The translations under genes and the position numbers were made by a program. 64,000 nt of DNA from a virus (lineage: Duplodnaviria; Heunggongvirae; Uroviricota; Caudoviricetes; Demerecviridae): IMG/VR virus record IMGVR_UViG_2974604416_000001, positions 1 through 64,000 of that record; one strand, 5' to 3'. Below are positions 1,799 to 63,841 of this stretch, piece after piece (the first letter of the stretch is position 1; each line of letters opens with the position of its first letter). Under the pieces are notes generated by a model, which made no database searches, had not been told where the DNA came from, and was given only the letters and a program-made list of their open reading frames with translations.

Positions 1799-1808
1799 AT
1801 GGGTATCC

Positions 1809-3646: not shown

Positions 3647-3650
3647 TTGA

Positions 3651-15180: not shown

Positions 15181-15206
15181 AAAAAAGCTGGCCGAAGCCA
15201 GCTCAT
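15181..15206 (-). terminator. rho-independent terminator
   Basis: aaaaaa-gctggc-cgaa-gccagc hairpin with the T-run on the minus strand. Confidence 0.5.
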
Positions 15207-25802: not shown

Positions 25803-25829
25803 AATAATGGGCTCCAGTTCTTAAAGTTA

Positions 25830-35220: not shown

Positions 35221-35227
35221 AACAATT

Positions 35228-38124: not shown

Positions 38125-38169
38125 ATACTCAGGTCTCCTTAAACCTCTGTCCAATCAATCTCATCAATA

Positions 38170-39002: not shown

Positions 39003-39267
39003 ATTACCTCACTTTCCAATATTATACACCTAAAAAGGCCTGTGATCAAGATTTATAACAAAAAAGGAGATGATTTTACTCATCTCCTTGTTCTTCTTGC
39101 GGCACTTTGACTATGCTTTGCGGGATAATTTTCATGTAGTCCCACGACATATGGGTCACGAAGTTGATACCTGCTGGGAGGTTACGCAACTTAGCTACTG
39201 TAAGTGTCAGAACTGAGCCAGATTTATTAATGGTGAACTACATATCCACCTAGTCTAACAAACCTTT

Positions 39268-40434: not shown

Positions 40435-40460
40435 CTAAGCTCCTTGAGTAATAAAACAAA

Positions 40461-40497
40461 ACAAAAAAGGAGGCACTTAGGCCTCCTTCTTTATAGC
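40461..40497 (-). terminator. rho-independent terminator
   Basis: aggaggc-actta-gcctcct hairpin followed on the minus strand by ttttttgttttgtttt. Confidence 0.6.
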
Positions 40498-40515
40498 TCT
40501 GAAGCCAGAACTTTA

Positions 40516-41253
40516 TTACTCAGCAGCTTCTTTAGCCTTCTTGGCGTCAGCAGCAGCCTTTTTAGCTGCTCCATCATAGTCAACAGCGCTCAGGCCACGA
40601 CGGGTCAGCATGGACTTAACGGAACGCTCGCCCTTGCCAGTTGCTTCAACCAGTTGTGCAACGGTCATTTCAGCAACGTCCAAACCTTCGAACTAATCGG
40701 CAGAAGCCTTACGTGCGCTAGCTTCCTGCTTCGGAATAGCAGCGATGCGACCTTCGCGGTGCAGGGACAGAGCCTTACCACGAATCTGCGGCAGGGTACG
40801 ACCCAGAGCAGCAGCAACTGCGTCAATAGAAGCGCCTTCGTTGGCCATTTCTACGAACACTGCTTCTTCTTGTTCGGTATAAGTACGAACTACTTCCTTC
40901 TTCGGAGTAGCCTTAACCAGAGAGGTCAGTTCCTCAGACAGAACCTTACCTTGTACGGTACGGGCATTAACTTCGAAGGACAGTTGACCAGCCAGTTCAG
41001 CGTAGGTAAACACACCCGGATTAGCGTTCAGGACGCTATGCAGTTCAGCAGTCTGCTCAGGAGACCATGCGGTCTTTTGGGCTGACAGAGACTCAACAGT
41101 ATAACCAGCCTTACGCAGCTTAGCTGCTACAGAGCGAGAAGTAGTGTCCAGCTTCTCAGCCAGGTCAACAACAACTTCTTTGCTTACGCTTGCCATACCG
41201 TCAACAGTGCTGAACAGGGTATTGGTCATTTCTTCGTTCCACTTCTTAGCCAT
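40516..41253 (-). CDS. alanine-rich protein in a GC-rich island (one in-frame TAG at 40693-40695)
   Basis: start MAKKWNEEMT with a GGAGAGA RBS; frame passes the TAG and ends in TAA at 40516; local GC about 55 percent. Confidence 0.45.
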
Positions 41254-42025
41254 TTGTATTTCTCTCCACAAGCTCTTTAATAGAGCCAATAGTTATTCCT
41301 AGTCCTACAGCTTTCTTATAGGAGCTGGATGTTGTTTTAGATTCATCTTCGCATACGAGGAAGTTAGTTGCCTTAGTTACTGTATCTTTTACAGTGTAAC
41401 CTAAAGAGGTTAAGTAGGTTTTCGCTTCGTCGCGGTTTTTAAAGTCATTCAAAGAACCAGTAATTACTATGACTAAGCCGTTATTAATAGGTGTTACATT
41501 GATTGGGGCTTTAGTACTAGGAACTACTCGGTCTTCTAGGTCGAACACCCAAGGATTCTCAATAGCAAATTCTTGGAGTAAACCGGTCAACCTAGGGGTT
41601 ACTACGTCCTTCATAGTGAAGGCTTGTTCCAAAGAACTGGCTTGTGCTGCTAAAGTTTTTGAAGCAGTAGCACCAAAGCCAGTAATGGCTAAGCCTTCTA
41701 GGAACTTGTCCATTGGAATCTTGGTCGTCTTGTCTACCAACTCTTTGTGTAGCTTATTAGCCATGAGGTCTGAAAAACCTGCATTTATAAAGTCTTCGAC
41801 AGTCAAACCAAGAAATTCAGGTATCGTTGATACCGAAATCTTTTCCAATGTTGCTGGGCCAAATCCTTTTACGGATAGAGCTTTGCAAAACTTTTCTAGT
41901 CGCTTGCCAGTCTGAGCTGCGCAACCAGCTTTGTTCGGGCATTTCAGTGTGACCGCAATCGGTGACACTACCCGTTCCAACAGTGTACCACAGCTTGGAC
42001 ACTGTGTTGGCGGAATAATCTTCAT
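41246..42025 (-). CDS. ligB: NAD-dependent DNA ligase, C-terminal subunit (Zn finger, HhH, BRCT)
   Basis: CPSCG...CPN zinc finger, HhH region and BRCT-like tail; own RBS GAAGGAGC; separate frame from ligA. Confidence 0.7.
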   Translation of the reverse strand: MKIIPPTQCPSCGTLLERVVSPIAVTLKCPNKAGCAAQTGKRLEKFCKALSVKGFGPATLEKISVSTIPEFLGLTVEDFINAGFSDLMANKLHKELVDKTTKIPMDKFLEGLAITGFGATASKTLAAQASSLEQAFTMKDVVTPRLTGLLQEFAIENPWVFDLEDRVVPSTKAPINVTPINNGLVIVITGSLNDFKNRDEAKTYLTSLGYTVKDTVTKATNFLVCEDESKTTSSSYKKAVGLGITIGSIKELVERNTNG

Positions 42026-42040
42026 TGAAGCTCCTTCACA

Positions 42041-42071
42041 CTTTGTACATACAGTATATCAAGTTTTGGGG
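42041..42071 (-). promoter_or_regulatory. conserved promoter-RBS cassette upstream of ligB
   Basis: reverse complement reads TTGATATACTgtatgtacaaagtgtGAAGGAGc; an additional TTGACG-17-TATACT promoter lies at about 42120-42150. Confidence 0.45.
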
Positions 42072-42203
42072 AAGTGAGCAATAACTATTTCACATTGAGG
42101 AGAACCCAATCCTCTAAGGTGGTGCTCTCCAAAGCAGATAAACAGTATAGCCCTAAAGAACGTCCACGTCAACCGCAGTTTAAAATGCTAACGGTAGTGT
42201 GGG

Positions 42204-43169
42204 TTAATCCGCTCTTCCAACAATAGTTGGGATAATGTCCCCAGCTCGAATAACCGCTACCTTACACCCAATTTCCAGACCTAGGGTCTCGATATACGTG
42301 ATGTTGTTCAAAGTAGCCCGGCTAATTGAAGTTCCCTTGATATCTACAGGTTCCAAAATGGCTACTGGAGTGACTCTGCCAGAAGAACCTACTTGCCACA
42401 CTACGTCCAGTAAGGTTGTCTCTACAGGCGGTTCGTCCTCTTTCACAGCATAAGCTCCGCGTGGGAACTTAGATGTGTAACCCAGTTCTGCAAACACCTT
42501 GTTATCATCTACTCGATAGACGACACCATCCTGTGGTGCGGTGTCAGCGTAGGGTCTATGGAGGGCTACATCAAATCCTTGGGCGTCTAGAATTTGCATA
42601 TCAGCGCTGTAGCTGTCTGTCATTGCTGGTACTAAGCCGTAAGCAATGAAAACAACACCATACTCTTCAAATACTCTCTTGGCTTCATTAAGGTCTTTTT
42701 CAGTAACTAGCTTACCAGAAACAATGTTTCTTGAGTTGGCAGAGGCTTTGGTAGCTACCACTTCCCCAGGTACTTGGACAATACCTTTCGCACCAAAAAA
42801 TCTATGAGGGATTTGGAGCAATTTGAGTTTATCAGTTACGTCCTGACCCTTCTCCCCGTCACCACGAGTGGTAGCACGAGCTAGGTGCCCGTCGAGGTAA
42901 ACCAGCTCAACAGCATTACCATCATACTTTGGGGAATCAACTAGCTGCTTGCCTGCGCAAGAGGTAGGAATCTTGTCGCCCCGCTTCGGATATACTTTTT
43001 GCAGAGAATACATCGGGTATGCCAGTGGGATGTCACCAGTAGGCCCAATACTTTTTTCTGCATTGTAGTACATAACCAAAGCATCATACTGCTCGTCAGA
43101 CAACTCTGGGGTGCCTTTGGCGTACAGCTCCTGATGGTGCTTAATTAGCTTTTCGATTTCTAAATTCAT
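42204..43169 (-). CDS. ligA: NAD-dependent DNA ligase, N-terminal adenylation subunit
   Basis: KxDG adenylation motif in SPKYDGNAVELVY; ends in TAA, 180 nt and one frame shift away from ligB (two-gene arrangement as in T5). Confidence 0.75.
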   Translation of the reverse strand: MNLEIEKLIKHHQELYAKGTPELSDEQYDALVMYYNAEKSIGPTGDIPLAYPMYSLQKVYPKRGDKIPTSCAGKQLVDSPKYDGNAVELVYLDGHLARATTRGDGEKGQDVTDKLKLLQIPHRFFGAKGIVQVPGEVVATKASANSRNIVSGKLVTEKDLNEAKRVFEEYGVVFIAYGLVPAMTDSYSADMQILDAQGFDVALHRPYADTAPQDGVVYRVDDNKVFAELGYTSKFPRGAYAVKEDEPPVETTLLDVVWQVGSSGRVTPVAILEPVDIKGTSISRATLNNITYIETLGLEIGCKVAVIRAGDIIPTIVGRAD

Positions 43170-47039: not shown

Positions 47040-49967
47040 TTATAGCTCTAACATCTCAGAGTAGTCTACAGGAGACTCTTCCTTAAGTGCAGAAGGAAGC
47101 GGTAGACTATTAAAGGAGCAATACTTCTCTACGTTAAATAGGGCGTTTGCTGGTTCCCATACCCAATGTTTAGCATCCAAAGGAATACCTAGCATACTGA
47201 ACAATAGTGTAGGGATTTTGTTGTTATAATGTACACCGGCTCTAAACAGCTTTGGTAGGTTTACAAGACACAAGTCAATAAACTTGGCCTTCTTCCAACC
47301 CGCTTCTAGCTGTGCATCCATGATTTGACACAGCTCGTCCCATAACCCTGGAATCATCATGAATCGGTACGCTTTCTCAGCCTTCTTCAAGGTGTTATCC
47401 TCTAGGAAGTCGATAATCATATCCACAGTGATATCCTCTACTCCAGAGAAGTGTTGGACAGCTTTGTAGATCATCTGAGCATTATTTATCCTTCGTGTGT
47501 TAGGGATATTTTTACTCATGTAGATTTTAGTAGCGTACAAATTCAAGTGCTCCTCTGAATACATAGCCAAAGCTTTGTACTCAAGCAAGTTTTCTTCACA
47601 CGGAGGAAGAATAGTTACCTTGCTGGTTTTCTTGAGCATATTGTAGCGGACGTAGAACTGGTACTTGTTATGCTCCCGCATCTTCCGTAAAAAGAAGATG
47701 GTTTGCAAATCACCAACCATACCCTTATCAAAAGATGACAAGCACTTAGCTGGGGTAGACACCCCACCGTTAGCATCACCAGAAGTCCAGTAATGGACGT
47801 AAATCGGGTGACGCTCTCGACAGATAGCTTGAATGCGAATTGCTGGACTGTTTAAGCCAGATGACGTAATACAATACACATGGGTAAAGTACTTCTGGAA
47901 GTCAACACCAGAGGTCATACTTGGGCTTGTAATACAGATATCCACACATAGCTCTTTGAGGGCTTTTGTTGGTACAGCAGCGTCCATAATCATACGTACG
48001 TCTTCGTCATCCCGACTTTCTGCGTGAATCTCCACAATAGTAGGGACGCGCACTCCGTTAGCAATACAATGCTGTTGGATGCCGTAAGACAACTCGTCAA
48101 TCTGCTTAGGGCCGTAATCGGTTACTACTAGGATACGCATTGGTAGACCAGAGCTAGCGTTTGTTAGCATATGACCAACAATATCAGGCTCAGTCTTGTG
48201 CTCGTACACTTTGGCATCTAGGTGAGTAGGAACCTCAGACTGGTAGGTAATGGTTGGTTTTGTGTGCCCGACCAAAGCTGAGTAGGCTTCCACAGTCTCG
48301 CTAGAGGTATCACCGTCTGCCAAGATCACGTAATCACACTGAATCATTAGTAGATACAGTGCGTTAAGGATTCGGTCTCGGCGTTCAGAGTCAATGATAG
48401 CACTATCGAGGAGTTCTTGAATGGTGCTGTCAGACTCATCAATAAACAAAGTTTTGGTACCGGGGATACCAGTGAACCTTTCCGCAACTTTGTGCAAGCT
48501 GTGGATAGTGGTAGCGATACCGTTCTTGTTTATTTCGAAACCTAGCTTGGTGTACACGTCCAAATCCATCGCAGAAGCGATGGATTCTACCAGAGTAACA
48601 CGGTTGGTGACAGCTAGGATAGAACCCAACTTACCACGCTTCTGTAGCTCACGAACAGAATAGGTTTTACCCATACCCAGGGATGCTTTCAGAAAACTGA
48701 GCTTACCACGTTCAGGGAACGAGTCAGGTAGCACAAGCTTGCCCATAGGAGAAGGCTCACAATCGTGAATTTGGTGCTTCCACTTATTCTCCTTAGGAAA
48801 GGAAACACTACGAGCAACGTCGGCAATAGACCTAGCCATAGCGAAGCGGAAACCGTTATGTAGGTAATCTTTGACCTTTTTCGTGCTGCCATGACGTTTT
48901 GAGTAGCTCCGTAGAATGGGTGTAAGAATATTGCGCTCAAAGTCTTTAATGTCCAGACCTTCCTGTAGCGCATCAAAGTAAAGGGTGTGTACAGTTTTAA
49001 TGTACATGTTATCACTTACTTTACCGGTCATGATATCATTACACTTTCTCTGCAAGTTTGCTGGTAGCTGTGCTACGGCTTTATCAATCTCTGGATTAGC
49101 TAAAACAGGAATACCATCTAGTTTAGCCATGATTTCCAGGTGGTGCTTATTCAGCTCCTCGTATTCTGTTGCCTCAATAGCCGACTCCAGAGCTTTTGGG
49201 ATAGTAGCACTACAGCCAAAAGTGTAATACAGCCTATCTGTATTGTGGAAAGGGTCAGCCAGCCCCTCAAGAGTTGGGGGAGCCGTAATCAGAATACGTG
49301 CAGGAGAGTAGGTGGTATTGTCAAGGAATCCTTGCAGCTTCTGGTTAATTTGGTCAATCAGAAAACGGATTTGACCACCAGTAAGCTCGTGCTCATTCAC
49401 AAAGTAGAAGTGCGCACGAATACCGGAACTGATACCTGCCGAAGAGGATGCCAGAACAATGTGACCCATAGTCTCAGGGAAAAATTCTGGGAACTCTTGG
49501 TGTAGTAGGCCCACAATGTACTTACCAACTTCTGGCAAGTCAATTGGGTTAGGCGCAGACATATCGACCCAAGAGTCAATGTCAAACGCGATTAGCTTGA
49601 AGGGTGCATTGTGACTATCGAATGCTACCTTAGTACGTGGAACAAGGGTATCTTGTCCCACTTTCTTTTTACCCACTACCATCAGCAGGTTAGGGTTATT
49701 TTGGGATTTGCGTAGGAATTTTACAGCACTCTTAATGCTATCAGGATTTGCTTCCTGTACTACTTCGTAGTAAAACTTCTTCCTTAGATCGCCGGATTCT
49801 GCTTTTAGCAGAAACGGCACAGGCATACCATCTTCCAGCTTGAAGGTAGACGTTATGCTTTTAGTAAAGCTGGGGGTGTGAGTCAAAGGTACATACTCTT
49901 CCCTCATGCTATTATCTGAGGTTCGGATGTACCTACGCACCAATCTTGGAGCTAGGATAGAGAACAT
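47040..49967 (-). CDS. primase-polymerase (AEP-like DxD) / SF3-type helicase fusion-like replication protein
   Basis: 975-aa intact ORF; LIAFDIDS (hhhDhD) near the N-terminus and Walker A KASLGMGKTYS centrally; zero in-frame TAG. Confidence 0.45.
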   Translation of the reverse strand: MFSILAPRLVRRYIRTSDNSMREEYVPLTHTPSFTKSITSTFKLEDGMPVPFLLKAESGDLRKKFYYEVVQEANPDSIKSAVKFLRKSQNNPNLLMVVGKKKVGQDTLVPRTKVAFDSHNAPFKLIAFDIDSWVDMSAPNPIDLPEVGKYIVGLLHQEFPEFFPETMGHIVLASSSAGISSGIRAHFYFVNEHELTGGQIRFLIDQINQKLQGFLDNTTYSPARILITAPPTLEGLADPFHNTDRLYYTFGCSATIPKALESAIEATEYEELNKHHLEIMAKLDGIPVLANPEIDKAVAQLPANLQRKCNDIMTGKVSDNMYIKTVHTLYFDALQEGLDIKDFERNILTPILRSYSKRHGSTKKVKDYLHNGFRFAMARSIADVARSVSFPKENKWKHQIHDCEPSPMGKLVLPDSFPERGKLSFLKASLGMGKTYSVRELQKRGKLGSILAVTNRVTLVESIASAMDLDVYTKLGFEINKNGIATTIHSLHKVAERFTGIPGTKTLFIDESDSTIQELLDSAIIDSERRDRILNALYLLMIQCDYVILADGDTSSETVEAYSALVGHTKPTITYQSEVPTHLDAKVYEHKTEPDIVGHMLTNASSGLPMRILVVTDYGPKQIDELSYGIQQHCIANGVRVPTIVEIHAESRDDEDVRMIMDAAVPTKALKELCVDICITSPSMTSGVDFQKYFTHVYCITSSGLNSPAIRIQAICRERHPIYVHYWTSGDANGGVSTPAKCLSSFDKGMVGDLQTIFFLRKMREHNKYQFYVRYNMLKKTSKVTILPPCEENLLEYKALAMYSEEHLNLYATKIYMSKNIPNTRRINNAQMIYKAVQHFSGVEDITVDMIIDFLEDNTLKKAEKAYRFMMIPGLWDELCQIMDAQLEAGWKKAKFIDLCLVNLPKLFRAGVHYNNKIPTLLFSMLGIPLDAKHWVWEPANALFNVEKYCSFNSLPLPSALKEESPVDYSEMLEL

Positions 49968-54483: not shown

Positions 54484-56652
54484 ATGCCTATTTATGTTGG
54501 CAACACTGGGGCCTAGAAAATATTAGGTCTAACAAAAACCTCCCAGGATTAGTGGAACGTAAAGCCAGATACTATATTCCACTCCTCCCTGCCGTATGTA
54601 GAAGTAATCGAGCATTATATGCCTGTTGCGTATAAACACTAGGCTGCACCTTATGACTATTTAGTAAAAGATTATAACCCAGACTACTGGGGGACAGTAA
54701 CAGTATATGACTGGTTCAATTACTACAATTACGCACCAATAAATGGAAATAAATATCATAATATTCATTACTATGAATAGGTGCTTACCGATTAGGTAAA
54801 ATCATTCCTTAGGTACACAAATAATTAGTACATACTAATTTATCACTTGAGCAACGGTGCCCAAGTGATGATGCCATAGCATAATTCTGATATAAAGACC
54901 ACCCATAAAGGGGACTTGCAATACCTAGACTAGACAGAAGGTAACATATAGACCCCCAACTAGGGGTATAGGTCTAGAATGGATCAACTCAAAGCTATTG
55001 ATAGTCCGTGGGACTTAACTGGGTACCAAGACGTATATTGGTTTCAGTACGCCTTTGTACAGCCTTCTGCAAGCGGAGTTGTTACAACCACTAATGGTAT
55101 AGTAAGCACTCTTGATATCACTGTTACTGGTATTACTATCCTGCAGTTAGTAGGTCTTAACCTAGTCTAGGCAACTCCAGGAGCTAACCCGCTGTCTACG
55201 TAGCCACTGAACCCTTAGCAGCAAGGGGCCGTTCTTATATCAAGAGATTCCTTGAACATTTAGGGAGTTGAGTATAAGAACAAAAAGTTTCTGCAAGTGC
55301 TTACTAACCCCATTACTACTACAGGTAGTTAGGCTGTAAACGTCTCTACTTAGAACTTATAGGTTACAAATCTGTACGCCTCTTCTCCCAGCTTCCAATG
55401 GGGGACTAGACTAGACTATCTAGCTAAATATCGTGACGGGGGCTTCATGAACGTAGATATAACCTAGGGTTCTTCACAGTACACCTTAATAAACTATCCT
55501 CTGGGGCAGGAGTGGTACTCTAATGTCCCTGCTGTAGGTGCTTGGGGCGTGCTGCCAGGCAATAATATGACAACATATAGTGGGGCTGTGCCAGGGTACT
55601 GGCCTTATAGTTTTTATGGTGGTGCGTCAGTTGGGGTTAATTCTTGGAAAGGTAGTATTAGGAAACCCAAAGAGCTTATTTAGCAGTCTTGGTAGCACAC
55701 CTTTACTAGACTTAGCTAGACCGATACCTGGACTCTAGGTCAGTACTTTAACCAAGGGCTAGCAAATCGCCTTGGTTCTGAGGTTCAATACTTCTAGGGC
55801 GTGTAGATTACCTCTCTAAGTAAGTAGTAGGGTATTGCGTTTGATAGTTCACACCCTAGCATCAATTAGGGTGCCCAATATAAGATGTTCTCGCCAGATT
55901 CGCAAATGGTTGCAAGAATTGGTAAAACATACGCAGCAGCTATCCCACAAGATACCTTTAGCGGGTCACCCTACTATTCTGGGACACGGAATTTTCCGTA
56001 GTACGAAGATGATATTCTTGTATCAATAATTGATTTGGGGTAGGAAGAGCAGTAGACCAACAACTTCTTCCTAACATCCTACATTCAAGACCAAGATTTA
56101 ATTAACCTGTCCTATGCTAATACCTTGAGGTTTATTGTATCGGGTGGCGTTATCTCATACCAAGAGAATAACTTTAACCCAAGCTACAACATACCTAAGT
56201 AGTGCTTATTCTATAGATAGCCGTATGATGGGGTTGGTGGGCAATGGTACAAGTCTGTGCAAGCCAATAATGGTTCCCCTGTATAGTTTGGTTATCCAAA
56301 TTGGTACTACAGCAACTACGACTTACCTACAGATATGATAGGATTCCCTTTCCAATCAAACCATATACGTAATAGGTAGGTTTCTGTGGTAAGCTTGCCA
56401 GTAGGTGCACAATATATCTTGAAAGAAGAGCTGAATCCACAGTCAAGCTACGCGTGGAACGGGCCAGACCAAGTTAGGGGGGTACGAAGCTCTATCTAGT
56501 ATCTTCGTAGAATCTCATAGTCCAGAATTGAGGTGCGCCTCAACGTACATAAGACACAGTAGCACAGTAGGTTCTCTAATGGTGGGTATCTTGGTTTCGG
56601 TACTTTTGGGTCTAGCGTAGTTCAAAACTTCTAGATATGCCCTATACTGTAA
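54484..56652 (+). CDS. large Tyr/Gly/Asn-rich protein, 723 codons with about 50 in-frame TAG (fiber/OMP-like?)
   Basis: the frame from the ATG at 54484 to the TAA at 56650 contains no TAA or TGA but many TAG; the tracked 63-aa ORF 54979-55170 is an internal TAG-free piece of this same frame. Confidence 0.4.
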
Positions 56653-58759: not shown

Positions 58760-58848
58760 GGATGTTTTGAGCAGTATGGTGAGCTTCAGCGGGCTGTAAC
58801 CCCGTGGTCTCTAGGGGCCTGTAGGTTCGAATCCTACAACATCCACCA
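58760..58848 (+). tRNA. tRNA-Tyr(GUA), class II
   Basis: acceptor GGATGTT/AACATCC, anticodon loop CUGUAAC, T-arm GTAGGTTCGAATCCTAC, encoded CCA. Confidence 0.6.
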
Positions 58849-58854
58849 ATTTCT

Positions 58855-58940
58855 GGAGGTTTTGAGCAGTATGGTGAGCTCAGGTGGCTGTAACCCACTA
58901 ACTTCTACGTTTATAGGTTCGAATCCTATAACCTCCACCA
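58855..58940 (+). tRNA. tRNA-Tyr(GUA) second copy, class II
   Basis: acceptor GGAGGTT/AACCTCC, loop CUGUAAC, encoded CCA. Confidence 0.55.
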
Positions 58941-58945
58941 ATTTC

Positions 58946-59062
58946 TGGACTTGTAGCGACAACGGCTCGATAGGCGTACCCTGTGTGCGGAGTAATCTGT
59001 AATCACTATCAGGTAAAATCCCTATGGAGCGGTGACTGGTTGGAATCCAGTATAGTCCACCA
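58946..59062 (+). ncRNA. 117-nt tRNA-like element (T-arm + acceptor + CCA, no resolvable cloverleaf)
   Basis: 3' end ACTGG-TTGGAAT-CCAGT ATAGTCC A CCA and 5' GGACTTG; the interior does not fold as a standard D/anticodon arm. Confidence 0.3.
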
Positions 59063-59069
59063 ACTTAAT

Positions 59070-59144
59070 ATTGGCGTGTTCTAACGGTAAGATGCAGGTC
59101 TCCAAAACCTTGCGATGAGGGTTCGAATCCTTCCGCCTTTGCCA
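59070..59144 (+). tRNA. tRNA-Trp(CCA) with two U:U mismatches in the acceptor stem
   Basis: anticodon loop CUCCAAA identical to E. coli tRNA-Trp; discriminator G; CCA encoded. Confidence 0.5.
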
Positions 59145-59152
59145 ATTTTTAT

Positions 59153-59228
59153 AGACCGCTAACTTAATGGTTAGAGTACCCGCCTCTTAAGCGGAAGGTT
59201 CTGAGTTCGAGTCTCAGGCGGTCTACCA
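59153..59228 (+). tRNA. tRNA-Lys(CUU)
   Basis: acceptor AGACCGC/GCGGTCT; loop CUCUUAA. Confidence 0.55.
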
Positions 59229-59235
59229 ATTTAAT

Positions 59236-59309
59236 GCTCGGTTATTTTAACGGGAGAATCCTTCCCTTACAAGGAAGAGGAGTTGGTTCGATTCCAACAC
59301 CGAGTACCA
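59236..59309 (+). tRNA. tRNA-Val(UAC)
   Basis: anticodon stem CTTCC/GGAAG; loop CUUACAA. Confidence 0.6.
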
Positions 59310-59315
59310 GTTAGT

Positions 59316-59391
59316 TGAGACGTTGTGTAATTGGTTAGCACATGTGACTTTGACTCACATAGTTAGGGTTCGAGCCCCTACGTCTCTGCCA
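59316..59391 (+). tRNA. tRNA-Gln(UUG)
   Basis: anticodon stem TGTGA/TCACA; loop CUUUGAC; 1:72 U:U mismatch. Confidence 0.55.
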
Positions 59392-59397
59392 ATTTAA

Positions 59398-59472
59398 GGT
59401 CAGGTAGACTAAGTTAAGTCACTAGGGATCATGCACCTAGGAATGCTGGTTAAAGTCCAGTCATGACCACCA
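59398..59472 (+). tRNA. aberrant tRNA with a 9-nt anticodon loop (GAUCAUGCA; CAU core) and a TTAAAGT T-loop
   Basis: normal acceptor, D-stem GACT/AGTC and anticodon stem CTAGG/CCTAG, but the loop is 9 nt. Confidence 0.4.
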
Positions 59473-59477
59473 ATTTT

Positions 59478-59553
59478 GGATAGTAAGCACATGAGGATGT
59501 GCGGTAGGCCGTTAACCTACAGGTAGAAGGTTCGAATCCTTCACTATCCGCCA
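59478..59553 (+). tRNA. tRNA-Asn(GUU)-like (loop CCGUUAA, C33)
   Basis: acceptor GGATAGT/ACTATCC; anticodon stem GTAGG/CCTAC. Confidence 0.5.
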
Positions 59554-59558
59554 ATTTT

Positions 59559-59635
59559 GGGTTAGAAGCACATATGGTATGTGCGGTCGCCTGTTAAGCG
59601 AATGGTAGAAGGTTCGAATCCTTCCTGGCCCGCCA
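59559..59635 (+). tRNA. tRNA-Asn(GUU)
   Basis: loop CUGUUAA; paralog of the previous tRNA with a different acceptor stem. Confidence 0.55.
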
Positions 59636-59649
59636 AATTAAAATAAATA

Positions 59650-59678
59650 TTGCTATCAAGCCAATAACTTGATATAAT
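59650..59678 (+). promoter_or_regulatory. sigma70-type promoter
   Basis: TTGCTA, 17 nt, TATAAT. Confidence 0.55.
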
Positions 59679-59703
59679 ATTCACAGAAATTGAGGAAAAG
59701 CTA

Positions 59704-59883
59704 ATGAGCAAAGTTTGCAGGTTAGGTGAGAGTAAGGCTCTCAACGTGGCTAAGCGACGTAATCTACGTAAGAAGATGCGTGAGCTAATTAACCAGCACG
59801 TTCAGCCAGAAATGCAAGCAGAGTTTCACACGGCCTTCAATAAAGTATGTGAGGCTTACTGCCTAAGTTTAATGCGTCACTAA
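59704..59883 (+). CDS. small basic protein (59 aa)
   Basis: GAGGAAAAG RBS plus ATG; the 3' end overlaps the 5' acceptor strand of the next tRNA. Confidence 0.3.
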   Translation: MSKVCRLGESKALNVAKRRNLRKKMRELINQHVQPEMQAEFHTAFNKVCEAYCLSLMRH

Positions 59884-59951
59884 TTCAATTGGTTTAGAAT
59901 ATCCGGCTTTTAACCGGAAGGTTGTAGGTTCGAGTCCTACGTGGCGTACCA
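59874..59951 (+). tRNA. tRNA-Lys(UUU)
   Basis: anticodon stem TCCGG/CCGGA; loop CUUUUAA. Confidence 0.6.
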
Positions 59952-60007
59952 TTTAACAAACTGTGAAGGTAGTACAGGACTTAATGTCGGGAATCCTTCT
60001 GGTTTAT

Positions 60008-60082
60008 GCTCCTATCGACTAGCGGTTAGGTCACTACCCTTTCAAGGTAGTAACATGGGTTCGAATCCCATTAGGAGTACCA
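60008..60082 (+). tRNA. tRNA-Glu(UUC)
   Basis: anticodon stem CTACC/GGTAG; loop CUUUCAA. Confidence 0.6.
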
Positions 60083-60169
60083 AACTCTCCCTTGCAGTCT
60101 ACGGACGCTATGGGTTTTTGGAGCACGCAAGGCTCTGCCCAATGTAAAGTCGCCTTGCAACAATTCTAC

Positions 60170-60244
60170 GCTCTGTTAGTTTAATGGAAAGAACACTTCG
60201 CTACGGACGAAGAGATCTGGGTTCGATTCCTAGACGGAGTACCA
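60170..60244 (+). tRNA. tRNA-Arg(ACG)
   Basis: anticodon stem CTTCG/CGAAG; loop CUACGGA. Confidence 0.6.
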
Positions 60245-60549
60245 CTTTTGCCTTGGCCGGCAATAAGTCTAGCTAGTAGACTATAACAGCAAGCACGGTT
60301 ATGGGCCGTATAGCTCATGCGTCCAGCAACTCGACGTAAAATAGGAGCCCTCTTGTTGATTATTGGTATAATCATCCGGAAATAGCCTAACCGTTAGAAA
60401 GGCTGGCCTGTTCCCTCTGACAATGTCAGGTGGAAGTATCTCTTAGATGTCCAGAGCGGATCCCGTTGGGTTGATGCGTGTGTCGGTCTAATTCATACAA
60501 GCCATCAGGATTAGCCATCCATAGAGGGGTTTTTAAAGCGTTTTCTGGC
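60245..60549 (+). ncRNA. 305-nt non-coding spacer inside the tRNA operon (candidate structured RNA)
   Basis: no ORF, no tRNA fold; lies between tRNA-Arg and tRNA-His. Confidence 0.2.
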
Positions 60550-60626
60550 GTGGGCATAGGTTATGTCAGGTTAAACTCCACGTTGTGACCGTGGGAAAAT
60601 GGGTTCAAATCCCATTGCTCACCCCA
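60550..60626 (+). tRNA. tRNA-His(GUG)
   Basis: anticodon stem CCACG/CGTGG; loop UUGUGAC; discriminator C73; T-arm ATGGGTTCAAATCCCAT. Confidence 0.6.
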
Positions 60627-60647
60627 GAGAACGTTTTAAAATAATGA

Positions 60648-60676
60648 TTGCTGTCAAGTCAATAACTTGATATAAT
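60648..60676 (+). promoter_or_regulatory. sigma70-type promoter immediately upstream of the suppressor tRNA
   Basis: TTGCTG, 17 nt, TATAAT; near-identical to the 59650 promoter. Confidence 0.55.
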
Positions 60677-60690
60677 ATTTACATAAATTC

Positions 60691-60765
60691 GGGGATGTAG
60701 CTCAATGGGAGAGCAGCGGACTCTAAATTCGCCGGTTGTGGGTTCGAGTCCCATCATCTCCACCA
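60691..60765 (+). tRNA. amber suppressor tRNA, anticodon CUA, with alanine identity elements (G3:U70, A73)
   Basis: GGGGATG-TA-GCTC-AATGGGA-GAGC-A-GCGGA-CUCUAAA-TTCGC-CGGTT-GTGGG-TTCGAGT-CCCAT-CATCTCC-A-CCA; anticodon C60723 U60724 A60725; the acceptor closely resembles the adjacent tRNA-Ala. Confidence 0.75.
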
Positions 60766-60771
60766 AATTTA

Positions 60772-60845
60772 GGGGAATTAGTGATAATGGTAGCACTTCT
60801 GCCTTGCACGCAGAAAGCGAGGGTTCGATTCCCTCATTCTCCACC
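60772..60845 (+). tRNA. tRNA-Ala(UGC)
   Basis: acceptor GGGGAAT/ATTCTCC with G3:U70; loop CUUGCAC; A73. Confidence 0.65.
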
Positions 60846-60854
60846 AATTTCATT

Positions 60855-60929
60855 CTCTGGGTAGGCAAGTGGTATGTCGTCTGGTTTGGGGCCAGAAAGT
60901 CGAGTGTTCGATTCACTCTCCAGAGACCA
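60855..60929 (+). tRNA. tRNA-Pro(UGG)
   Basis: anticodon stem TCTGG/CCAGA; loop UUUGGGG. Confidence 0.55.
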
Positions 60930-60953
60930 ATCTTCTTAGTAAGGATTCTTAGT

Positions 60954-61154
60954 ATGAGAAATAAAACTAAGATGTTTATTACAAAACATCGAGGTGAACA
61001 GTATATTCAGAAAACTGGAACCTTAAATTTTATATCTCTAAAAGACGGAAGTATGATTCCTGGGGACGTAGCCGAAGAATTGGATAGACTGAATAAGTTT
61101 AAACGTGATTTCGGGTCAGAAACTGGATGGAAGTTCATCTTTACTATACCTTAA
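60954..61154 (+). CDS. small protein (66 aa) inside the tRNA array
   Basis: TAAGGA RBS plus ATG. Confidence 0.35.
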   Translation: MRNKTKMFITKHRGEQYIQKTGTLNFISLKDGSMIPGDVAEELDRLNKFKRDFGSETGWKFIFTIP

Positions 61155-61157
61155 TTG

Positions 61158-61233
61158 ACGCGCTTGGGAGGTAAGGTATCTCACTGGTCTCATAAGCCAG
61201 TAGAAGTGGGTTCGATTCCCACTTGCGCAACCA
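61158..61233 (+). tRNA. tRNA-Met/Ile2-like (CAU) with a poorly paired acceptor stem
   Basis: anticodon stem CTGGT/GCCAG; loop CUCAUAA; standard T-arm and CCA. Confidence 0.4.
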
Positions 61234-61420
61234 AATTAGTGCCTTGTACTTTTCCTGCTTGGCATTAGTAACCTTGAGCTTACAAGGTAAAAGAAAGCCT
61301 GTTCAGGCAATCCACTTTCCCTGTTAAATAAGGTGGATATTGGTAGTAGAAATGTGTGAGACCGTCAGAGGGCACTACCCTTCCTCTGTCCCCGTATTAA
61401 GGTAAGCGGGCCAAATTAAT
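61234..61420 (+). ncRNA. 187-nt non-coding spacer (candidate structured RNA)
   Basis: several inverted repeats (for example ccttgta...tacaagg); no ORF and no tRNA fold. Confidence 0.2.
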
Positions 61421-61497
61421 GCTCTCGTGATGGAATTGGCATACATACTACGCTTAGAACGTAGGTTCTGTGGGTTCGAGTCCCACCGAGAGTACCA
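61421..61497 (+). tRNA. tRNA with Leu anticodon UAG but a class I (short) variable arm
   Basis: anticodon stem CTACG/CGTAG; loop CUUAGAA; 5-nt variable loop. Confidence 0.5.
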
Positions 61498-61503
61498 AAT
61501 TAT

Positions 61504-61581
61504 AGAGGGGTAGCTCCAAGTGGTTAGAGCATTCGTTTCATACGCGAACGCGTGTCGGTTCGATTCCGACTCCCTCTACCA
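61504..61581 (+). tRNA. tRNA with a compressed anticodon arm (stem TTCG/CGAA, loop UUUCAUA or 5-nt UUCAU)
   Basis: normal acceptor, D and T arms; the anticodon arm is 2 nt short; anticodon ambiguous (CAU or UCA). Confidence 0.35.
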
Positions 61582-61597
61582 AATTATGTATTGAGTA

Positions 61598-61669
61598 GTT
61601 GCTGTAGTTCAGTAGGTAGAACAGCCCTCTCATCGGGGTACGTCGAAGGTTCGAATCCTTCCAGCAGAT
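61598..61669 (+). tRNA. tRNA-like gene, irregular anticodon arm, no encoded CCA
   Basis: D-arm TAGTTCAGTAGGTAGAAC and T-arm GAAGGTTCGAATCCTTC present. Confidence 0.3.
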
Positions 61670-61963
61670 AATCTCAATATGTGATAACACAACTGAATGT
61701 GGGTTCGACTCCCATCTCTGGCAATCCCAGGGTAGCCTTAATGGTAAAGGCAGAGGTTGTGGTGCCAAAGTCGGGCACAGAAAAACAGACTAATAAATAC
61801 AGAGTTGGCCGCTGCCACTGCCCTGTCACGTCAGGGACTACTAAAAACGTAGAACCCTTCAGCAAGGTTCCCTCTCTGTATAACGCGCGCAATACTTGAG
61901 CCTTGCAAGTATAAAGAAAGGCAGCTAATAAGTGCTTTCCAAAGAGAGTATTTATTAGTTAAT

Positions 61964-62040
61964 GGGGAAATGACGGAACTGGCATACGTGTCATCTTCAA
62001 ACGGTGAATTTTCTGGGTTCGACTCCCAGTTTCCCTACCA
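61964..62040 (+). tRNA. tRNA with Leu anticodon CAA but a class I variable arm
   Basis: anticodon stem TCATC/GGTGA; loop UUCAAAC; acceptor GGGGAAA/TTTCCCT. Confidence 0.5.
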
Positions 62041-62124
62041 AAATTAGTACTACCTTGGGAGAATGCGTTTCGGTACCGAGGCAAAATTCAAGAGTGGGAT
62101 TAAAGGCCCTTTTGGTAGTACTTT

Positions 62125-62199
62125 GGAGCTGTAGCTGAAATGGATTAGTACGTGGTTGAAACCCACGGGATGTTGGATCGTTACCAACCGGCTCCACCA
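62125..62199 (+). tRNA. tRNA-Phe(GAA)
   Basis: anticodon stem CGTGG/CCACG; loop UUGAAAC. Confidence 0.55.
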
Positions 62200-62206
62200 A
62201 ATTAAT

Positions 62207-62281
62207 GCGGCTATAGTGTTAATGGTAACACGAGACCTTGCCAAGGTTTAATTATCGGTTCGAGTCCGATTAGTCGCTCCA
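62207..62281 (+). tRNA. tRNA-Gly(GCC)
   Basis: loop UUGCCAA; discriminator U. Confidence 0.6.
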
Positions 62282-62286
62282 ATTAC

Positions 62287-62360
62287 GCAGTTAAGCACGA
62301 GGTGTGTCGCCGGCCTTCCAAGCCGCGCAGAGTAGGGTTCGATTCCCTCTAGCTGCTCCA
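62287..62360 (+). tRNA. tRNA-Gly(UCC)
   Basis: loop CUUCCAA; discriminator U. Confidence 0.5.
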
Positions 62361-62440
62361 ATTTGGTTCCCTCGAAGCTGGGACGTAAGCACAAGATTAA
62401 ATCGGAAGCCTTTAACGTCTTGTGGCCAAAAACTAATTAT

Positions 62441-62515
62441 GGGGCTATAGTATAATGGCTATTATCGGTCACTGTCTATGACAAGATGAGGGTTCGATTC
62501 CCTCTAGTCCCGCCA
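62441..62515 (+). tRNA. tRNA-Asp(GUC)-like
   Basis: loop CUGUCUA. Confidence 0.45.
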
Positions 62516-62521
62516 AATTCC

Positions 62522-62597
62522 GGTTCCATCGTTTATGTGGATAAGATACCTCCCTGTCACGGAGGAGTACAGGGTTCGAACCCCTGTGGAACCGCCA
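62522..62597 (+). tRNA. tRNA-Asp(GUC)
   Basis: anticodon stem CCTCC/GGAGG; loop CUGUCAC. Confidence 0.6.
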
Positions 62598-62604
62598 AAT
62601 TAAT

Positions 62605-62680
62605 GCTTCCATCGACTAAGCGGTTAGGTCGTCAGACTTTCAATCTGAAAATGCGAGTTCGATCCTCGCTGGAAGTACCA
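62605..62680 (+). tRNA. tRNA-Glu(UUC) second copy
   Basis: anticodon stem TCAGA/TCTGA; loop CUUUCAA. Confidence 0.55.
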
Positions 62681-62923
62681 AATTCAGAGCGCAGGCAATA
62701 GGGACTCCGGTGCGGTGGTTGCCAATAGTTACGCAGCGACGAGTGAGACCTCTGAATAAAAAGCAACCTGGCCCTCTCCCAGCAATGGTGATGGAGCTTC
62801 CTTTCCTGTAACAAGGTTCCAGTCCGCGACGGGTAAAAGGTTACATACAGACAATATAAGACCTGAGCTTACAGGTGAAAGGGAGATTGGGTTTGTCTTT
62901 CAACCGTACCTCCCAAGTATTTT
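62681..62923 (+). ncRNA. 243-nt non-coding spacer (candidate structured RNA)
   Basis: inverted repeats ttcagag...ctctgaa; no tRNA fold. Confidence 0.2.
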
Positions 62924-62999
62924 GCTAGGTTCGTACAGCAGGTTAGTACAGACGGCTGATAACCGTCAGACACAGGTTCGAGTCCTGTACCTAGTACCA
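62924..62999 (+). tRNA. tRNA-Ile(GAU)
   Basis: anticodon stem GACGG/CCGTC; loop CUGAUAA. Confidence 0.6.
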
Positions 63000-63005
63000 A
63001 TTTAT

Positions 63006-63081
63006 AGTGTGTTAGCTCAGTAGGTAGAGCAGGCTCTTGATAAGGGTCAGGTCACTGGTTCAAATCCAGTACGCACTACCA
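63006..63081 (+). tRNA. tRNA-Ile(GAU) second copy
   Basis: loop UUGAUAA. Confidence 0.55.
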
Positions 63082-63085
63082 ATTT

Positions 63086-63160
63086 GTTTGGTTAGTTTAA
63101 TAGGCAAAACACCGCCTTGGTAAGGCGGAATCGCAGGTTCGACTCCTGCACTGAACACCA
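63086..63160 (+). tRNA. tRNA-Thr(GGU)
   Basis: anticodon stem CCGCC/GGCGG; loop UUGGUAA. Confidence 0.6.
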
Positions 63161-63332
63161 GAAGTGCATTCAAGCCTATGAGAGTTATATGCTTGTAAAT
63201 ATCTCTTGTAACTCCCAGTTAGAAAGAGTACCCTAGCTGGTAAAACTAGAAGGTATCCCGCTGCGCGTACTAACCGCCAAGTTGTAAGAACTAAGTAGTT
63301 AGTAGGGTTGAAAGGGCAACCCACTCATTTTT

Positions 63333-63407
63333 GCTCCTAAAGCATTGCTGGCGATGCAGTTGCCTTGTAAGCATCTGAACTAGGTTCGATTCCTAGTGGG
63401 AGCACCA
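63333..63407 (+). tRNA. tRNA-Thr(UGU)
   Basis: loop CUUGUAA. Confidence 0.55.
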
Positions 63408-63413
63408 ATTTAC

Positions 63414-63504
63414 GGAAGATTAGTCTAATGGTAAGGCAGCTGTTTGCTAAACAGTCGGACACCTAAGTAGGGTCTTACAGGTTCGAGTCCTGTATCTTCC
63501 ACCA
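63414..63504 (+). tRNA. tRNA-Ser(GCU), class II
   Basis: loop UUGCUAA; long variable arm. Confidence 0.6.
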
Positions 63505-63519
63505 ATTTCTGGAGTGTTG

Positions 63520-63750
63520 ATGAACTACGCCAAGAAAATTGCTAAAAAGCAAGAAAAGATTAGCAAACTCCAGCTAGAACTAGCGCAGCTAGTTATGGAG
63601 TTTCAAGATTCCTGTACACATACATATGTTCCAGTAAGGCACTGGGATGACGATGATGGGTACTCTAAGCGTCTTTGCACTCACTACACTGAGTTTAGAT
63701 GTGTTCATTGTAAGCACACAACCGTAGAGGCTAAGACCTTTAATAGTTAA
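63520..63750 (+). CDS. small zinc-ribbon protein (76 aa)
   Basis: GGAG RBS plus ATG; CTH...CVHCKH cluster. Confidence 0.4.
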   Translation: MNYAKKIAKKQEKISKLQLELAQLVMEFQDSCTHTYVPVRHWDDDDGYSKRLCTHYTEFRCVHCKHTTVEAKTFNS

Positions 63751-63751
63751 T

Positions 63752-63841
63752 AGAAGGTTCGCATAATGGTATTGCAGCAGCTTGGAAAGCTGTAGACACC
63801 TAAGTAGGGTCTTGTGGGTTCGAGTCCCACACCTTCTGCCA
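63752..63841 (+). tRNA. tRNA-Ser(GGA), class II
   Basis: anticodon stem GCAGC/GCTGT; loop UUGGAAA; long variable arm shared with tRNA-Ser(GCU). Confidence 0.55.

Follow-up and report, generated by a model that had tools for sequence, protein, structure and literature searches.

The gene at positions 60,691–60,765 (+) of the analysed sequence raises the question of how a phage reads the codon TAG, since the gene encodes a tRNA with the amber anticodon CUA but appears to belong to the alanine type. The window, that is, the whole analysed stretch of 64,000 nucleotides, is the first 64 kb of the genome of the phage AhSzw-1, a cultured, lytic T5-like phage infecting Aeromonas hydrophila. Phages differing in code from their host have so far been reported to read TAG only as glutamine, and the genome of AhSzw-1 was previously listed under translation table 15 (TAG = Gln) by default. 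The results described below indicate that this phage very probably reads TAG as alanine, although the charging of the tRNA with alanine is inferred.

The tRNA Gene and Its Surroundings

A 75-nt tRNA with the anticodon CTA at position 33 was found by ARAGORN at exactly 60,691–60,765 (+). Comparison with the Rfam RF00005 model gave a score of 69.5 bits (E-value 8.7e-15; gathering score of 29) over model positions 1–71 of 71 without non-standard pairs, which is the best tRNA score in the region 60,500–61,800. Note that the minimum free energy structure calculated using ViennaRNA did not reproduce the cloverleaf either for this tRNA or for its normal neighbours, so this analysis was not useful here. 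The acceptor stem contains the pairs G1:C72, G2:C71, G3.U70 (G at 60,693 and T at 60,759), G4:C69, A5:U68, U6:A67 and G7:C66, followed by the discriminator A73 and an encoded CCA. The D stem is GCUC/GAGC with the D loop AAUGGGA, the anticodon stem is GCGGA/UUCGC, and the T arm is GUGGG-UUCGAGU-CCCAU. The 7-nt anticodon loop CUCUAAA contains U33, the anticodon C34 U35 A36 and A37, as is appropriate for a UAG-decoding tRNA.

According to the review of tRNA identity (PMC9976931), the identity elements of bacterial tRNA-Ala are A73, G2-C71, G3.U70, G4-C69 and G20, and no element is located in the anticodon. All four acceptor determinants are present in the tRNA under study. Thus, the original prediction of a canonical cloverleaf with a CUA anticodon and alanine identity elements was confirmed and extended. 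In addition, the best BLAST hits outside the genus were annotated as tRNA-Ala genes. Outside the anticodon arm, the tRNA is 86–92% identical to the tRNA-Ala genes of the phages Wofford, PSTCR5 and Aeh1, compared to 52–62% identity to tRNA-Gln genes. The gene can therefore be considered a tRNA-Ala by its body and predicted charging, but not by its decoding, since its anticodon is not an alanine anticodon (NGC). The tRNA is 100% identical in the phages AhSzq-1, Akh-2, TS3 and AhP_Mru1.

The gene is located in an array of 31 tRNA genes (58,760–63,841), all on the + strand. An ordinary tRNA-Ala(UGC), also containing G3.U70 and A73 (Rfam score of 62 bits), is located immediately downstream at 60,772–60,846 (+); the end coordinate of 60,845 in the original prediction is one base short. 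The two genes are only 64% identical outside the anticodon arm, and the CUA tRNA is therefore not a recent copy of its neighbour.

A sigma-70-like promoter candidate was found at 60,648–60,676 (+). It consists of TTGCTG (60,648–60,653), a 17-nt spacer and TATAAT (60,671–60,676), with TG at 60,668–60,669 forming an extended −10 element; the −10 hexamer ends 14 nt before the tRNA. The promoter was originally described as consensus, but this is an overstatement, since the −35 hexamer matches TTGACA at only three of six positions and the site was not listed by the consensus scan. However, it has the same TTGCnn-17-TGnTATAAT layout as the listed sites at 58,520 and 59,650, and it is conserved as TTGCAG-17-TATAAT in AhP_Mru1. 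The function of this promoter is inferred.

In-Frame TAG Codons in the AhSzw-1 Genome

To evaluate whether TAG is used as a sense codon, ORF coverage of the region 1–58,700 was calculated. Coverage was 76% under the standard code and 92% with TAG as sense, compared to 79% for TGA and 86% for TAA. As the greedy ORF set included some wrong-strand ORFs, for example, opposite the major capsid gene, it was replaced with ORFs selected by homology. It was revealed that 36 homology-supported genes contain 241 TAG codons, and all of these genes end in TAA or TGA. If TAG is a fifth alanine codon, it makes up about 20% of alanine-family codons in these genes.

A number of genes that are fragmented in the RefSeq annotation are rejoined when TAG is read as sense. 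The gene of the ribonucleotide reductase alpha subunit, NrdA (29,834–32,086, −), contains eight in-frame TAGs and corresponds to three separate CDSs in RefSeq. Its product aligns end to end with solved NrdA structures across all the TAGs (E-value 4.5e-143, residues 5–749), and the gene is intact and TAG-free in the phage TS3. The gene of the beta subunit, NrdB (28,517–29,638, −), contains four TAGs and is annotated as two CDSs. The D10-like helicase gene (33,792–35,261, −) contains 16 TAGs and only its 360-nt fragment is annotated, and the DnaB-like replicative helicase gene (39,076–40,476, −) contains 15 TAGs and is split into two CDSs. In-frame TAGs were also found in the genes encoding DNA primase (38,139–39,002, −; five TAGs), endolysin (25,792–26,223, −; three TAGs) and holin (23,507–24,295, −; 16 TAGs in 262 codons; PHROG 860, E-value 8.9e-34), the last being one of the most TAG-dense genes in the window. 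An ORF of 722 codons with 37 TAGs (54,484–56,652, +) does not belong to any recognisable family and fills a 2.2-kb stretch that has no ORF of 80 aa or more under the standard code.

The distribution of TAG codons is uneven. The pre-early (first-step-transfer) genes, namely A1-like and neighbouring genes (200–3671, −), contain no TAG at all, and the second copy of the terminal repeat (106,717–109,226 of the genome) is also TAG-free. The T5 record describes the first-step-transfer DNA as entering the cell first. These genes must be expressed before the rest of the genome, including the tRNA cluster, enters the cell. The genes of DNA polymerase (35,716–38,154, −), ligases A and B (41,246–43,169) and the origin-binding protein (47,040–49,967) are also TAG-free. 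TAG is present in the genes of helicases, primase and ribonucleotide reductase, and it is dense in late structural and lysis genes; in addition to the holin gene, 66 TAGs were found in the tape measure gene and 84 in the tail fibre gene. The terminase gene carries 15 TAGs and the portal gene carries six. This allows us to assume that expression of the TAG-containing genes depends on the CUA tRNA, which is probably transcribed from the sigma-70-like promoter together with the tRNA array; the timing of expression is inferred.

Amino Acid Corresponding to TAG

To determine the amino acid inserted at TAG, the TAG positions were compared with those of standard-code relatives. Against T5, 296 TAG sites were aligned, of which 73 corresponded to Ala (24.7% versus a background of 7.4%, 3.35-fold) and 13 to Gln (1.05-fold). 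The log-likelihood values were −794.7 for Ala, −857.0 for Ser and −907.1 for Gln. At columns invariant in at least six standard-code T5-like genomes, 12 of 13 TAG sites corresponded to Ala and one (97,178–97,180) to Gln (binomial P 5e-14). None of the TAGs of the window is located at a fully invariant column, but 4 of 7 window sites with a consensus of at least 80% (P 4e-4) and 7 of 12 with a consensus of at least 60% (P 2e-6) corresponded to Ala. These include the TAG at 34,782–34,784 in the D10-like helicase gene, which follows Walker A (GFGKTIT[TAG]LAIA), and the TAGs at 39,238–39,240, 39,676–39,678 and 40,168–40,170 in the DnaB-like helicase gene; at all these columns, Ala is the consensus of at least 80% of 11 standard-code relatives.

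Gene-matched random sites gave 7.2 ± 2.0% Ala, compared to the observed 30.9%. An artefact of X scoring was excluded by rewriting TAG as Q, W or G in the query, and Ala remained the top residue even when TAG was written as Q. Note that only about 25–31% of all TAG sites align with Ala in distant relatives, compared to 39–41% of ordinary GCN codons, and many TAGs lie at variable positions. Alignment to distant PDB homologues of NrdA and NrdB was uninformative, since the 12 TAGs fell opposite a mixture of residues (E, R/F, Q/K, H, T/R, T, G/S, L and H, V, G, A, respectively) and the sites were too variable and too few. Amino acid composition did not discriminate either, as GCN-Ala is not depleted in TAG-rich genes.

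In the closest relatives, CAG/CAA was the commonest replacement of TAG (12 of 19 in AhP_Mru1), which taken alone favours Gln. However, TAG<->CAG exchange was 1.8–5.3%, compared to 8–18% for the synonymous TTG<->CTG and TTA<->CTA exchanges. Opposite the TAGs of TS3, GCN (18) was more frequent than CAR (14), despite the need for two to three substitutions. We attribute the frequent replacement of TAG by CAG to the fact that CAG is the only viable transition neighbour of TAG, and the comparison with close relatives alone was considered misleading.

Interpretation of the CUA tRNA

Taken together, these results are best explained by an amber-decoding tRNA built on a tRNA-Ala body. Bacterial AlaRS recognises the acceptor stem and not the anticodon, so the host AlaRS should charge this tRNA with alanine despite its CUA anticodon, and Ala would then be inserted at UAG. 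The original suggestions that the tRNA supplies the decoding of in-frame TAG and that TAG is read as alanine are thus supported by comparative evidence, and we consider this reading highly probable, although it has not been shown biochemically and the way in which release factor 1 is overcome in genes with as many as 84 TAGs remains unexplained. There are precedents for the ability of such molecules to suppress amber codons. The T5 GenBank record notes that T5 tRNA-Ala with a replaced anticodon becomes an "effective amber suppressor", and Mukai et al. describe G3:U70 allo-tRNAs converted to CUA that "efficiently translated the amber codon" in E. coli (PMC5389517). Those are laboratory constructs used at single codons, whereas the tRNA described here is natural, fixed in a phage genus and serves hundreds of codons, including those in essential genes.

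Reading of TAG as glutamine was assumed for this genome by automatic annotation and has been shown for crAss-like phages; Cook et al. 2024 list MG676225, MG676224 and MK318083 under table 15. A CUA anticodon containing U35 could attract GlnRS, and the amber suppressor tRNA-Trp is indeed aminoacylated with glutamine (PMC9976931). Nevertheless, this reading is very unlikely. Gln is at the background level opposite TAG in T5 and 112 log-likelihood units worse than Ala, it accounts for one of the 13 invariant-column sites, and TAG and CAG do not exchange at the synonymous rate. The tRNA contains G1:C72, G3.U70 and A73, while both phage tRNA-Gln genes in the alignment contain U1 and G73, and G73, a weak 1:72 pair and G3:C70 are probably determinants for E. 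coli GlnRS. In addition, the gene caller behind the table 15 assignment seems to test only tables 4, 11 and 15 and so could not have returned Ala. Ambiguous decoding, in which the tRNA is charged mainly with Ala but appreciably with Lys or Gln through recognition of U35/A73, or in which host near-cognate tRNAs contribute, is also unlikely, but a minor fraction of other residues, for example, Lys inserted through LysRS, which reads U35 and A73, cannot be excluded. Lys (1.36-fold), Glu (1.37-fold) and Ser (1.3-fold) are slightly enriched opposite TAG, TAG sites are biased to variable positions, and several engineered E. coli amber suppressors may insert Lys or Gln. On the other hand, the signal at invariant columns is almost purely Ala, and Lys, Glu, Gln and Ser are the one-step mutational neighbours of TAG (AAG, GAG, CAG, TCG), which explains their mild excess without mischarging. 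Engineered tRNA-Ala(CUA) also appears to insert Ala faithfully in E. coli.

The possibility that the TAGs are true stops, resulting from pseudogenes, assembly errors or programmed truncation, is supported only by the fragmented annotation in public records and is contradicted by the data. The phage is cultured and lytic, and five independently sequenced genomes share the 100% identical tRNA and most TAG positions (87% conserved in AhP_Mru1 and 71% in TS3). Moreover, essential genes carry TAGs, the reading frames continue across the TAGs with homology on both sides, and TAG, but not TGA, restores coding density. The same is true for the assignment of the gene as tRNA-Pyl by ARAGORN and in the TS3 record, which is based purely on the CTA anticodon and is almost certainly wrong. 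The gene fits the general elongator tRNA model perfectly, with GG in the D loop and GTTCGAG in the T loop, which tRNA-Pyl seems to lack, and it is homologous to tRNA-Ala. PylRS and pylBCD are probably also required for the use of tRNA-Pyl, and nothing of that name was annotated in the analysed stretches of the phage records, the host genome not being included. Another odd tRNA-like gene (61,597–61,670) was considered as an opal suppressor, but this was judged unlikely, because reading TGA as sense does not improve coding density.

Comparison with Other Recoded Phages

Stop-codon recoding in phages is currently described as TAG-to-Gln or TGA-to-Trp. Like the TAG-to-Gln phages (crAss-like, Lak and other gut phages: Borges et al., Peters et al., Yutin et al.), AhSzw-1 infects a standard-code host and carries a CUA suppressor tRNA, its in-frame TAGs are concentrated in late structural and lysis genes and absent from the earliest genes, and its coding density collapses under table 11. 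The difference is that TAG is located at conserved Ala positions and the tRNA has AlaRS rather than GlnRS identity. We found no report of TAG read as Ala in phages. If this reading is correct, the reassignment is set by which synthetases ignore the anticodon, and not only by the promiscuity of GlnRS and TrpRS. In addition, AhSzw-1 is a cultured, genetically tractable phage of a proteobacterium with a two-step DNA injection that separates TAG-free from TAG-containing genes, rather than an uncultured gut phage. A natural tRNA-Ala(CUA) that evidently must compete successfully with release factor 1 can also be of interest for genetic code engineering.

Ala-type CUA tRNAs (G3.U70, A73) were also found in metagenomes as about 23 distinct sequences. 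Of 32 loci of at least 4 kb carrying such a tRNA, 22 are clearly TAG-recoded locally, compared to 0 of 11 loci with non-Ala-type CUA tRNAs found using the same search pattern. The G3.U70 pair is retained, amid compensatory stem changes, in the related CUA tRNAs of the loci L107 and L183 and of 58 metagenomic copies. In two unrelated lineages with Ala-type CUA tRNAs, TAG falls on conserved Ala positions, namely in the PhoH motifs DEAQNT and LAYMRGR and in the terminase Walker B. Public protein databases already contain these proteins with Gln at TAG, which would be a mistranslation if alanine is correct and would affect protein families, structure prediction and any alignment-based inference of the code, which becomes circular. 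It is somewhat more likely than not that TAG = alanine is a widespread and so far unrecognised phage genetic code, so that a part of the phages assigned to table 15 is mis-assigned; under this reading, since single genes carry up to 84 TAGs, AhSzw-1 must also possess an undiscovered way to neutralise release factor 1. The search for homologues of the terminase of the locus L134 gave only eight hits, which is too few for a column test, and was used only qualitatively. The large ORF of L107 (1421 aa, 24 TAGs) was found to be of low complexity.

Genome organization and the CUA tRNA of the phage AhSzw-1

The window represents the first 64 kb of the 115.7-kb genome of the T5-like Aeromonas phage AhSzw-1 (MG676225/NC_047950; Demerecviridae, genus Shenzhenvirus; host Aeromonas hydrophila), and its region 28000-50000 is 100% identical to positions 28000-50000 of that genome (megablast). 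The relatives of the phage are AhSzq-1 (97%), AhP_Mru1 (92%), and TS3 and Akh-2 (about 73% nucleotide identity).

Analysis using ARAGORN revealed 31 tRNA genes at positions 58760-63841, all located on the + strand. Several isoacceptors are duplicated in tandem (Tyr x2, Asn x2, Asp x2, Ile x2, Glu x2, Met x2) and small ORFs are interspersed among them. The array contains a 75-nt tRNA with the anticodon CTA (60691-60765), which is followed by tRNA-Ala(UGC) (60772-60846). The Rfam tRNA model scored the CUA gene at 69.5 bits (E 8.7e-15); the match was full length, had no non-standard pairs and was the best score in the neighbourhood. The acceptor stem consists of the pairs G1:C72, G2:C71, G3.U70, G4:C69, A5:U68, U6:A67 and G7:C66, the discriminator is A73, CCA is encoded, and the anticodon loop is CUCUAAA. 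The identity elements of bacterial tRNA-Ala are A73, G2-C71, G3.U70, G4-C69 and G20, with no determinant in the anticodon (PMC9976931, Table 1). All four acceptor elements are present in the CUA tRNA, and G20 is plausible (D loop AAUGGGA), although its numbering is ambiguous. Note that the RefSeq CDS HOT04_gp089 ("hypothetical protein", gene position 60705-61154, + strand) overlaps three tRNA genes (CUA, Ala and Pro) and is almost certainly spurious; the RefSeq and GenBank records of AhSzw-1 annotate no tRNA in this region.

The promoter proposed in the original prediction was found upstream of the CUA tRNA, namely TTGCTG (60648-60653), a 17-nt spacer and TATAAT (60671-60676), with TG at 60668-60669. 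However, it had been described as a consensus promoter, whereas its -35 hexamer matches the consensus at only 3 of 6 positions and it was not listed by the promoter scan. It shares the TTGCnn-17-TGnTATAAT layout of two listed promoters in the array and is conserved in AhP_Mru1.

In addition, an odd tRNA-like gene (Rfam tRNA score of 43.6 bits) was found at 61597-61670 on the + strand. ARAGORN reported it as "???" with a 2-base anticodon, while in AhP_Mru1, which differs by one base in the anticodon stem, it was called SeC(tca) and is labeled "suppressor tRNA" in GenBank. Its loop UCUCAUC would give the anticodon UCA, but with C33 and U37; CCA is absent and the acceptor stem contains a mismatch. 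Since reading TGA as sense does not improve coding density, this gene is probably not a working opal suppressor. T5 has unexplained "tRNA-like stable RNAs" in the same region.

Distribution of in-frame TAG codons

In order to evaluate recoding, positions 1-58700 were tiled with non-overlapping ORFs. The tiling covered 76% of the sequence under the standard code and 92% when TAG was read as sense; the controls gave 79% for TGA and 86% for TAA. The RefSeq annotation, made under table 11, splits NrdA into three CDSs, NrdB into two and the DnaB-like helicase into two, leaves terminase as a 207-nt stub and annotates no tRNAs. With TAG read through, NrdA aligned to solved structures over residues 5-749 (E 4.5e-143) across 8 TAG codons. 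In 36 homology-supported genes, TAG accounts for 241 of 1192 alanine-family codons, and these genes end in TAA (28) or TGA (8). The base following TAG is only mildly purine-enriched (72% against 63%, P 0.025).

The pre-early genes (200-3671 and the second repeat copy at 106717-109226) contain no TAG codons, and neither do the genes of the polymerase, both ligase subunits, the origin-binding protein and SSB. The primase gene contains 5 TAG codons, the DnaB-like helicase 15, the D10-like helicase 16 and the D13 homologue 24, while the holin gene contains 16 in 262 codons and the endolysin gene contains 3. All late genes carry TAG codons, including tail fibre (84), tape measure (66), Pb3 (34), terminase (15) and portal protein (6), whereas the genes of the most abundant proteins carry few of them (major capsid 2, major tail 3). 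A 722-codon ORF (54484-56652, + strand) located between nrdD and the tRNA array contains 37 in-frame TAG codons (5% of its codons); it has no PHROG match and only a 192-nt fragment of it is annotated publicly. Two early-region ORFs of unknown function on the opposite strand (15203-15775 and 18865-19659) have a very high TAG density, 18 in 190 codons and 15 in 264 codons, respectively, and are interspersed among TAG-free neighbours; the first looks like a multi-pass membrane protein. The TAG load differs gene by gene within the genus: TS3 has intact, TAG-free NrdA and NrdB (positions 39101-42660 of the TS3 locus L002), where AhSzw-1 (28517-32086) has 8 and 4 TAG codons. TAG codons are therefore being gained or lost on a short time scale.

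Comparative analysis of the TAG codon

Close relatives mostly conserve TAG, and where they differ, CAG/CAA is the commonest counterpart, which at first favoured Gln. However, this comparison is confounded, because CAG is the only viable transition neighbour of TAG. A comparison with T5 (standard code, 44% amino acid identity) showed that, of 296 TAG sites, 73 align with Ala (24.7% against a background of 7.4%, 3.35-fold), while Gln is at background (13 sites, 1.05-fold). An empirical substitution model built from the ordinary codons of the same alignments gave log-likelihoods of -794.7 for Ala, -857.0 for Ser and -907.1 for Gln.

Then, 19 standard-code T5-like loci were assembled from IMG/VR, each about 40-45% identical to AhSzw-1 and free of in-frame stops. 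At columns invariant in at least 6 of these genomes, 13 TAG sites fall on Ala 12 times and on Gln once (binomial P 5e-14); ordinary GCN codons match the invariant residue 71% of the time in the same late-gene set. Inside the window, no TAG lies at a fully invariant column. At a consensus of >=80%, 4 of 7 window sites are Ala (P 4e-4), namely 34782-34784, just after the helicase Walker A, and 39238-39240, 39676-39678 and 40168-40170 in the DnaB-like helicase. At a consensus of >=60%, 7 of 12 window sites are Ala (P 2e-6). Gene-matched random sites gave 7.2 +/- 2.0% Ala (maximum of 14.8% in 2000 draws) against 30.9% observed, and writing TAG as Q, W or G in the query left Ala on top.

A rate test showed that TAG<->CAG exchanges at 1.8-5.3%, while truly synonymous first-position T<->C changes in Leu codons run at 8-18% and average non-synonymous ones at about 1.1%. 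TAG is conserved like an isolated codon, namely 87% in AhP_Mru1 and 71% in TS3, against 75% and 64% for CAG. Opposite the TAG codons of TS3, the largest class in AhSzw-1 is GCN (18), ahead of CAR (14), even though GCN needs 2-3 substitutions. Analysis of the amino acid composition was uninformative.

Origin of the CUA tRNA and possible decoding of TAG

The CUA tRNA is 100% identical in AhSzq-1, Akh-2, TS3 and AhP_Mru1, although these genomes diverge to 73% nucleotide identity. Outside the genus, its best full-length matches are annotated as tRNA-Ala. Excluding the anticodon arm, it is 92%, 90% and 86% identical to the tRNA-Ala genes of Streptomyces phage Wofford, the T5-like Providencia phage PSTCR5 and Aeromonas phage Aeh1, respectively, but only 64% identical to the adjacent tRNA-Ala(UGC) and 52-62% identical to tRNA-Gln genes. 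Thus, it is a tRNA-Ala body with a new anticodon arm and not a recent copy of its neighbour.

It is inferred that the host AlaRS charges this tRNA with alanine, because the enzyme does not read the anticodon. According to the T5 record, T5 tRNA-Ala with a replaced anticodon is an "effective amber suppressor", and Mukai et al. reported that G3:U70 allo-tRNAs given a CUA anticodon "efficiently translated the amber codon" in E. coli. The T5 record also describes the terminal repeat as first-step-transfer DNA that enters the cell first. The tRNA gene lies at 60.7 kb and arrives only with the rest of the genome, which fits the total absence of TAG from the pre-early genes. The TAG density in the holin and structural genes would make lysis and assembly depend on the accumulation of the suppressor, which is the regulatory logic proposed for TAG-to-Gln phages.

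Cook et al. 2024 listed MG676225, MG676224 and MK318083 as table 15 in their Table S1 and remarked that recoding "appears sporadically" in Demerecviridae. Their gene caller seems to offer only tables 4, 11 and 15. No report of a natural TAG-to-Ala code in phages was found in full-text literature searches. So the recoding of this genome has been flagged before, but the alanine assignment and its tRNA basis appear to be new. The tRNA described in the original prediction was confirmed, and the interpretation that TAG is read as alanine was supported. We consider it very likely that this tRNA makes TAG an alanine codon; the remaining doubt mostly concerns ambiguous decoding. The only TAG found at a column that is invariant Gln in 8 standard-code relatives is in the major tail protein gene, outside the window (97178-97180 of the AhSzw-1 genome; 33178-33180 of the locus L006). 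If TAG is Ala, this is a Gln-to-Ala replacement at a conserved site, or a hint of some Gln insertion.

CUA tRNAs of the Ala type in other sequences

A pattern for an Ala-like 5' half plus a CUA anticodon was used to search for similar tRNAs. In metagenomes (contigs L111-L182), 78 CUA tRNAs were found, of which 58 (about 23 distinct sequences) have G3.U70 and A73. Of 32 such loci of at least 4 kb, 22 are clearly TAG-recoded locally, against 0 of 11 for the non-Ala-type CUA tRNAs. Most are AT-rich (24-38% GC), and the contigs L138, L144, L145, L169 and L171 carry two tandem Ala-type CUA tRNAs.

In one lineage (metagenomic contig L172), a PhoH-like ATPase with 22 in-frame TAG codons (5822-6988, - strand) has TAG at the Ala of the DEAQNT and LAYMRGR motifs and at 3 of the 4 columns where distant homologues are at least 50% Ala. 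The 220-codon segment that was searched has only 3 GCN-Ala codons but 15 TAG codons, so in this lineage TAG may be the main alanine codon. The relative L183 has an Ala-type CUA tRNA next to phoH (L183 6001-7014 (+) and c[5125,5200]). In another lineage (L134), the terminase Walker B position is TAG where 4 of 5 distant homologues have Ala. The closest database homologues show Q at these positions, and public database proteins of these lineages (P0001-P0005 and P0045-P0047) carry Gln where the DNA has TAG. For P0001, a codon-by-codon comparison with the DNA proved that all 8 discrepancies are TAG codons written as Q, which means a table-15 translation. If TAG is Ala, these entries are wrong and any alignment-based inference of the code that uses them is circular.

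The same pattern revealed a tRNA in a 135-kb IMG/VR contig with 29% GC (L107; IMGVR_UViG_3300002494_000025), which is 86% identical to that of AhSzw-1, differs mostly by compensatory stem changes and keeps G3.U70 and A73. This Ala-type CUA tRNA is located next to tRNA-Ala(UGC) and a tmRNA gene and near a 1421-codon ORF with 24 TAG codons (L107 7073-7148, 6825-6900, 7155-7514 and 800-5065, all on the + strand). L107 has no protein homology to AhSzw-1. The same tRNA occurs on a 236-kb metagenomic contig (L174).
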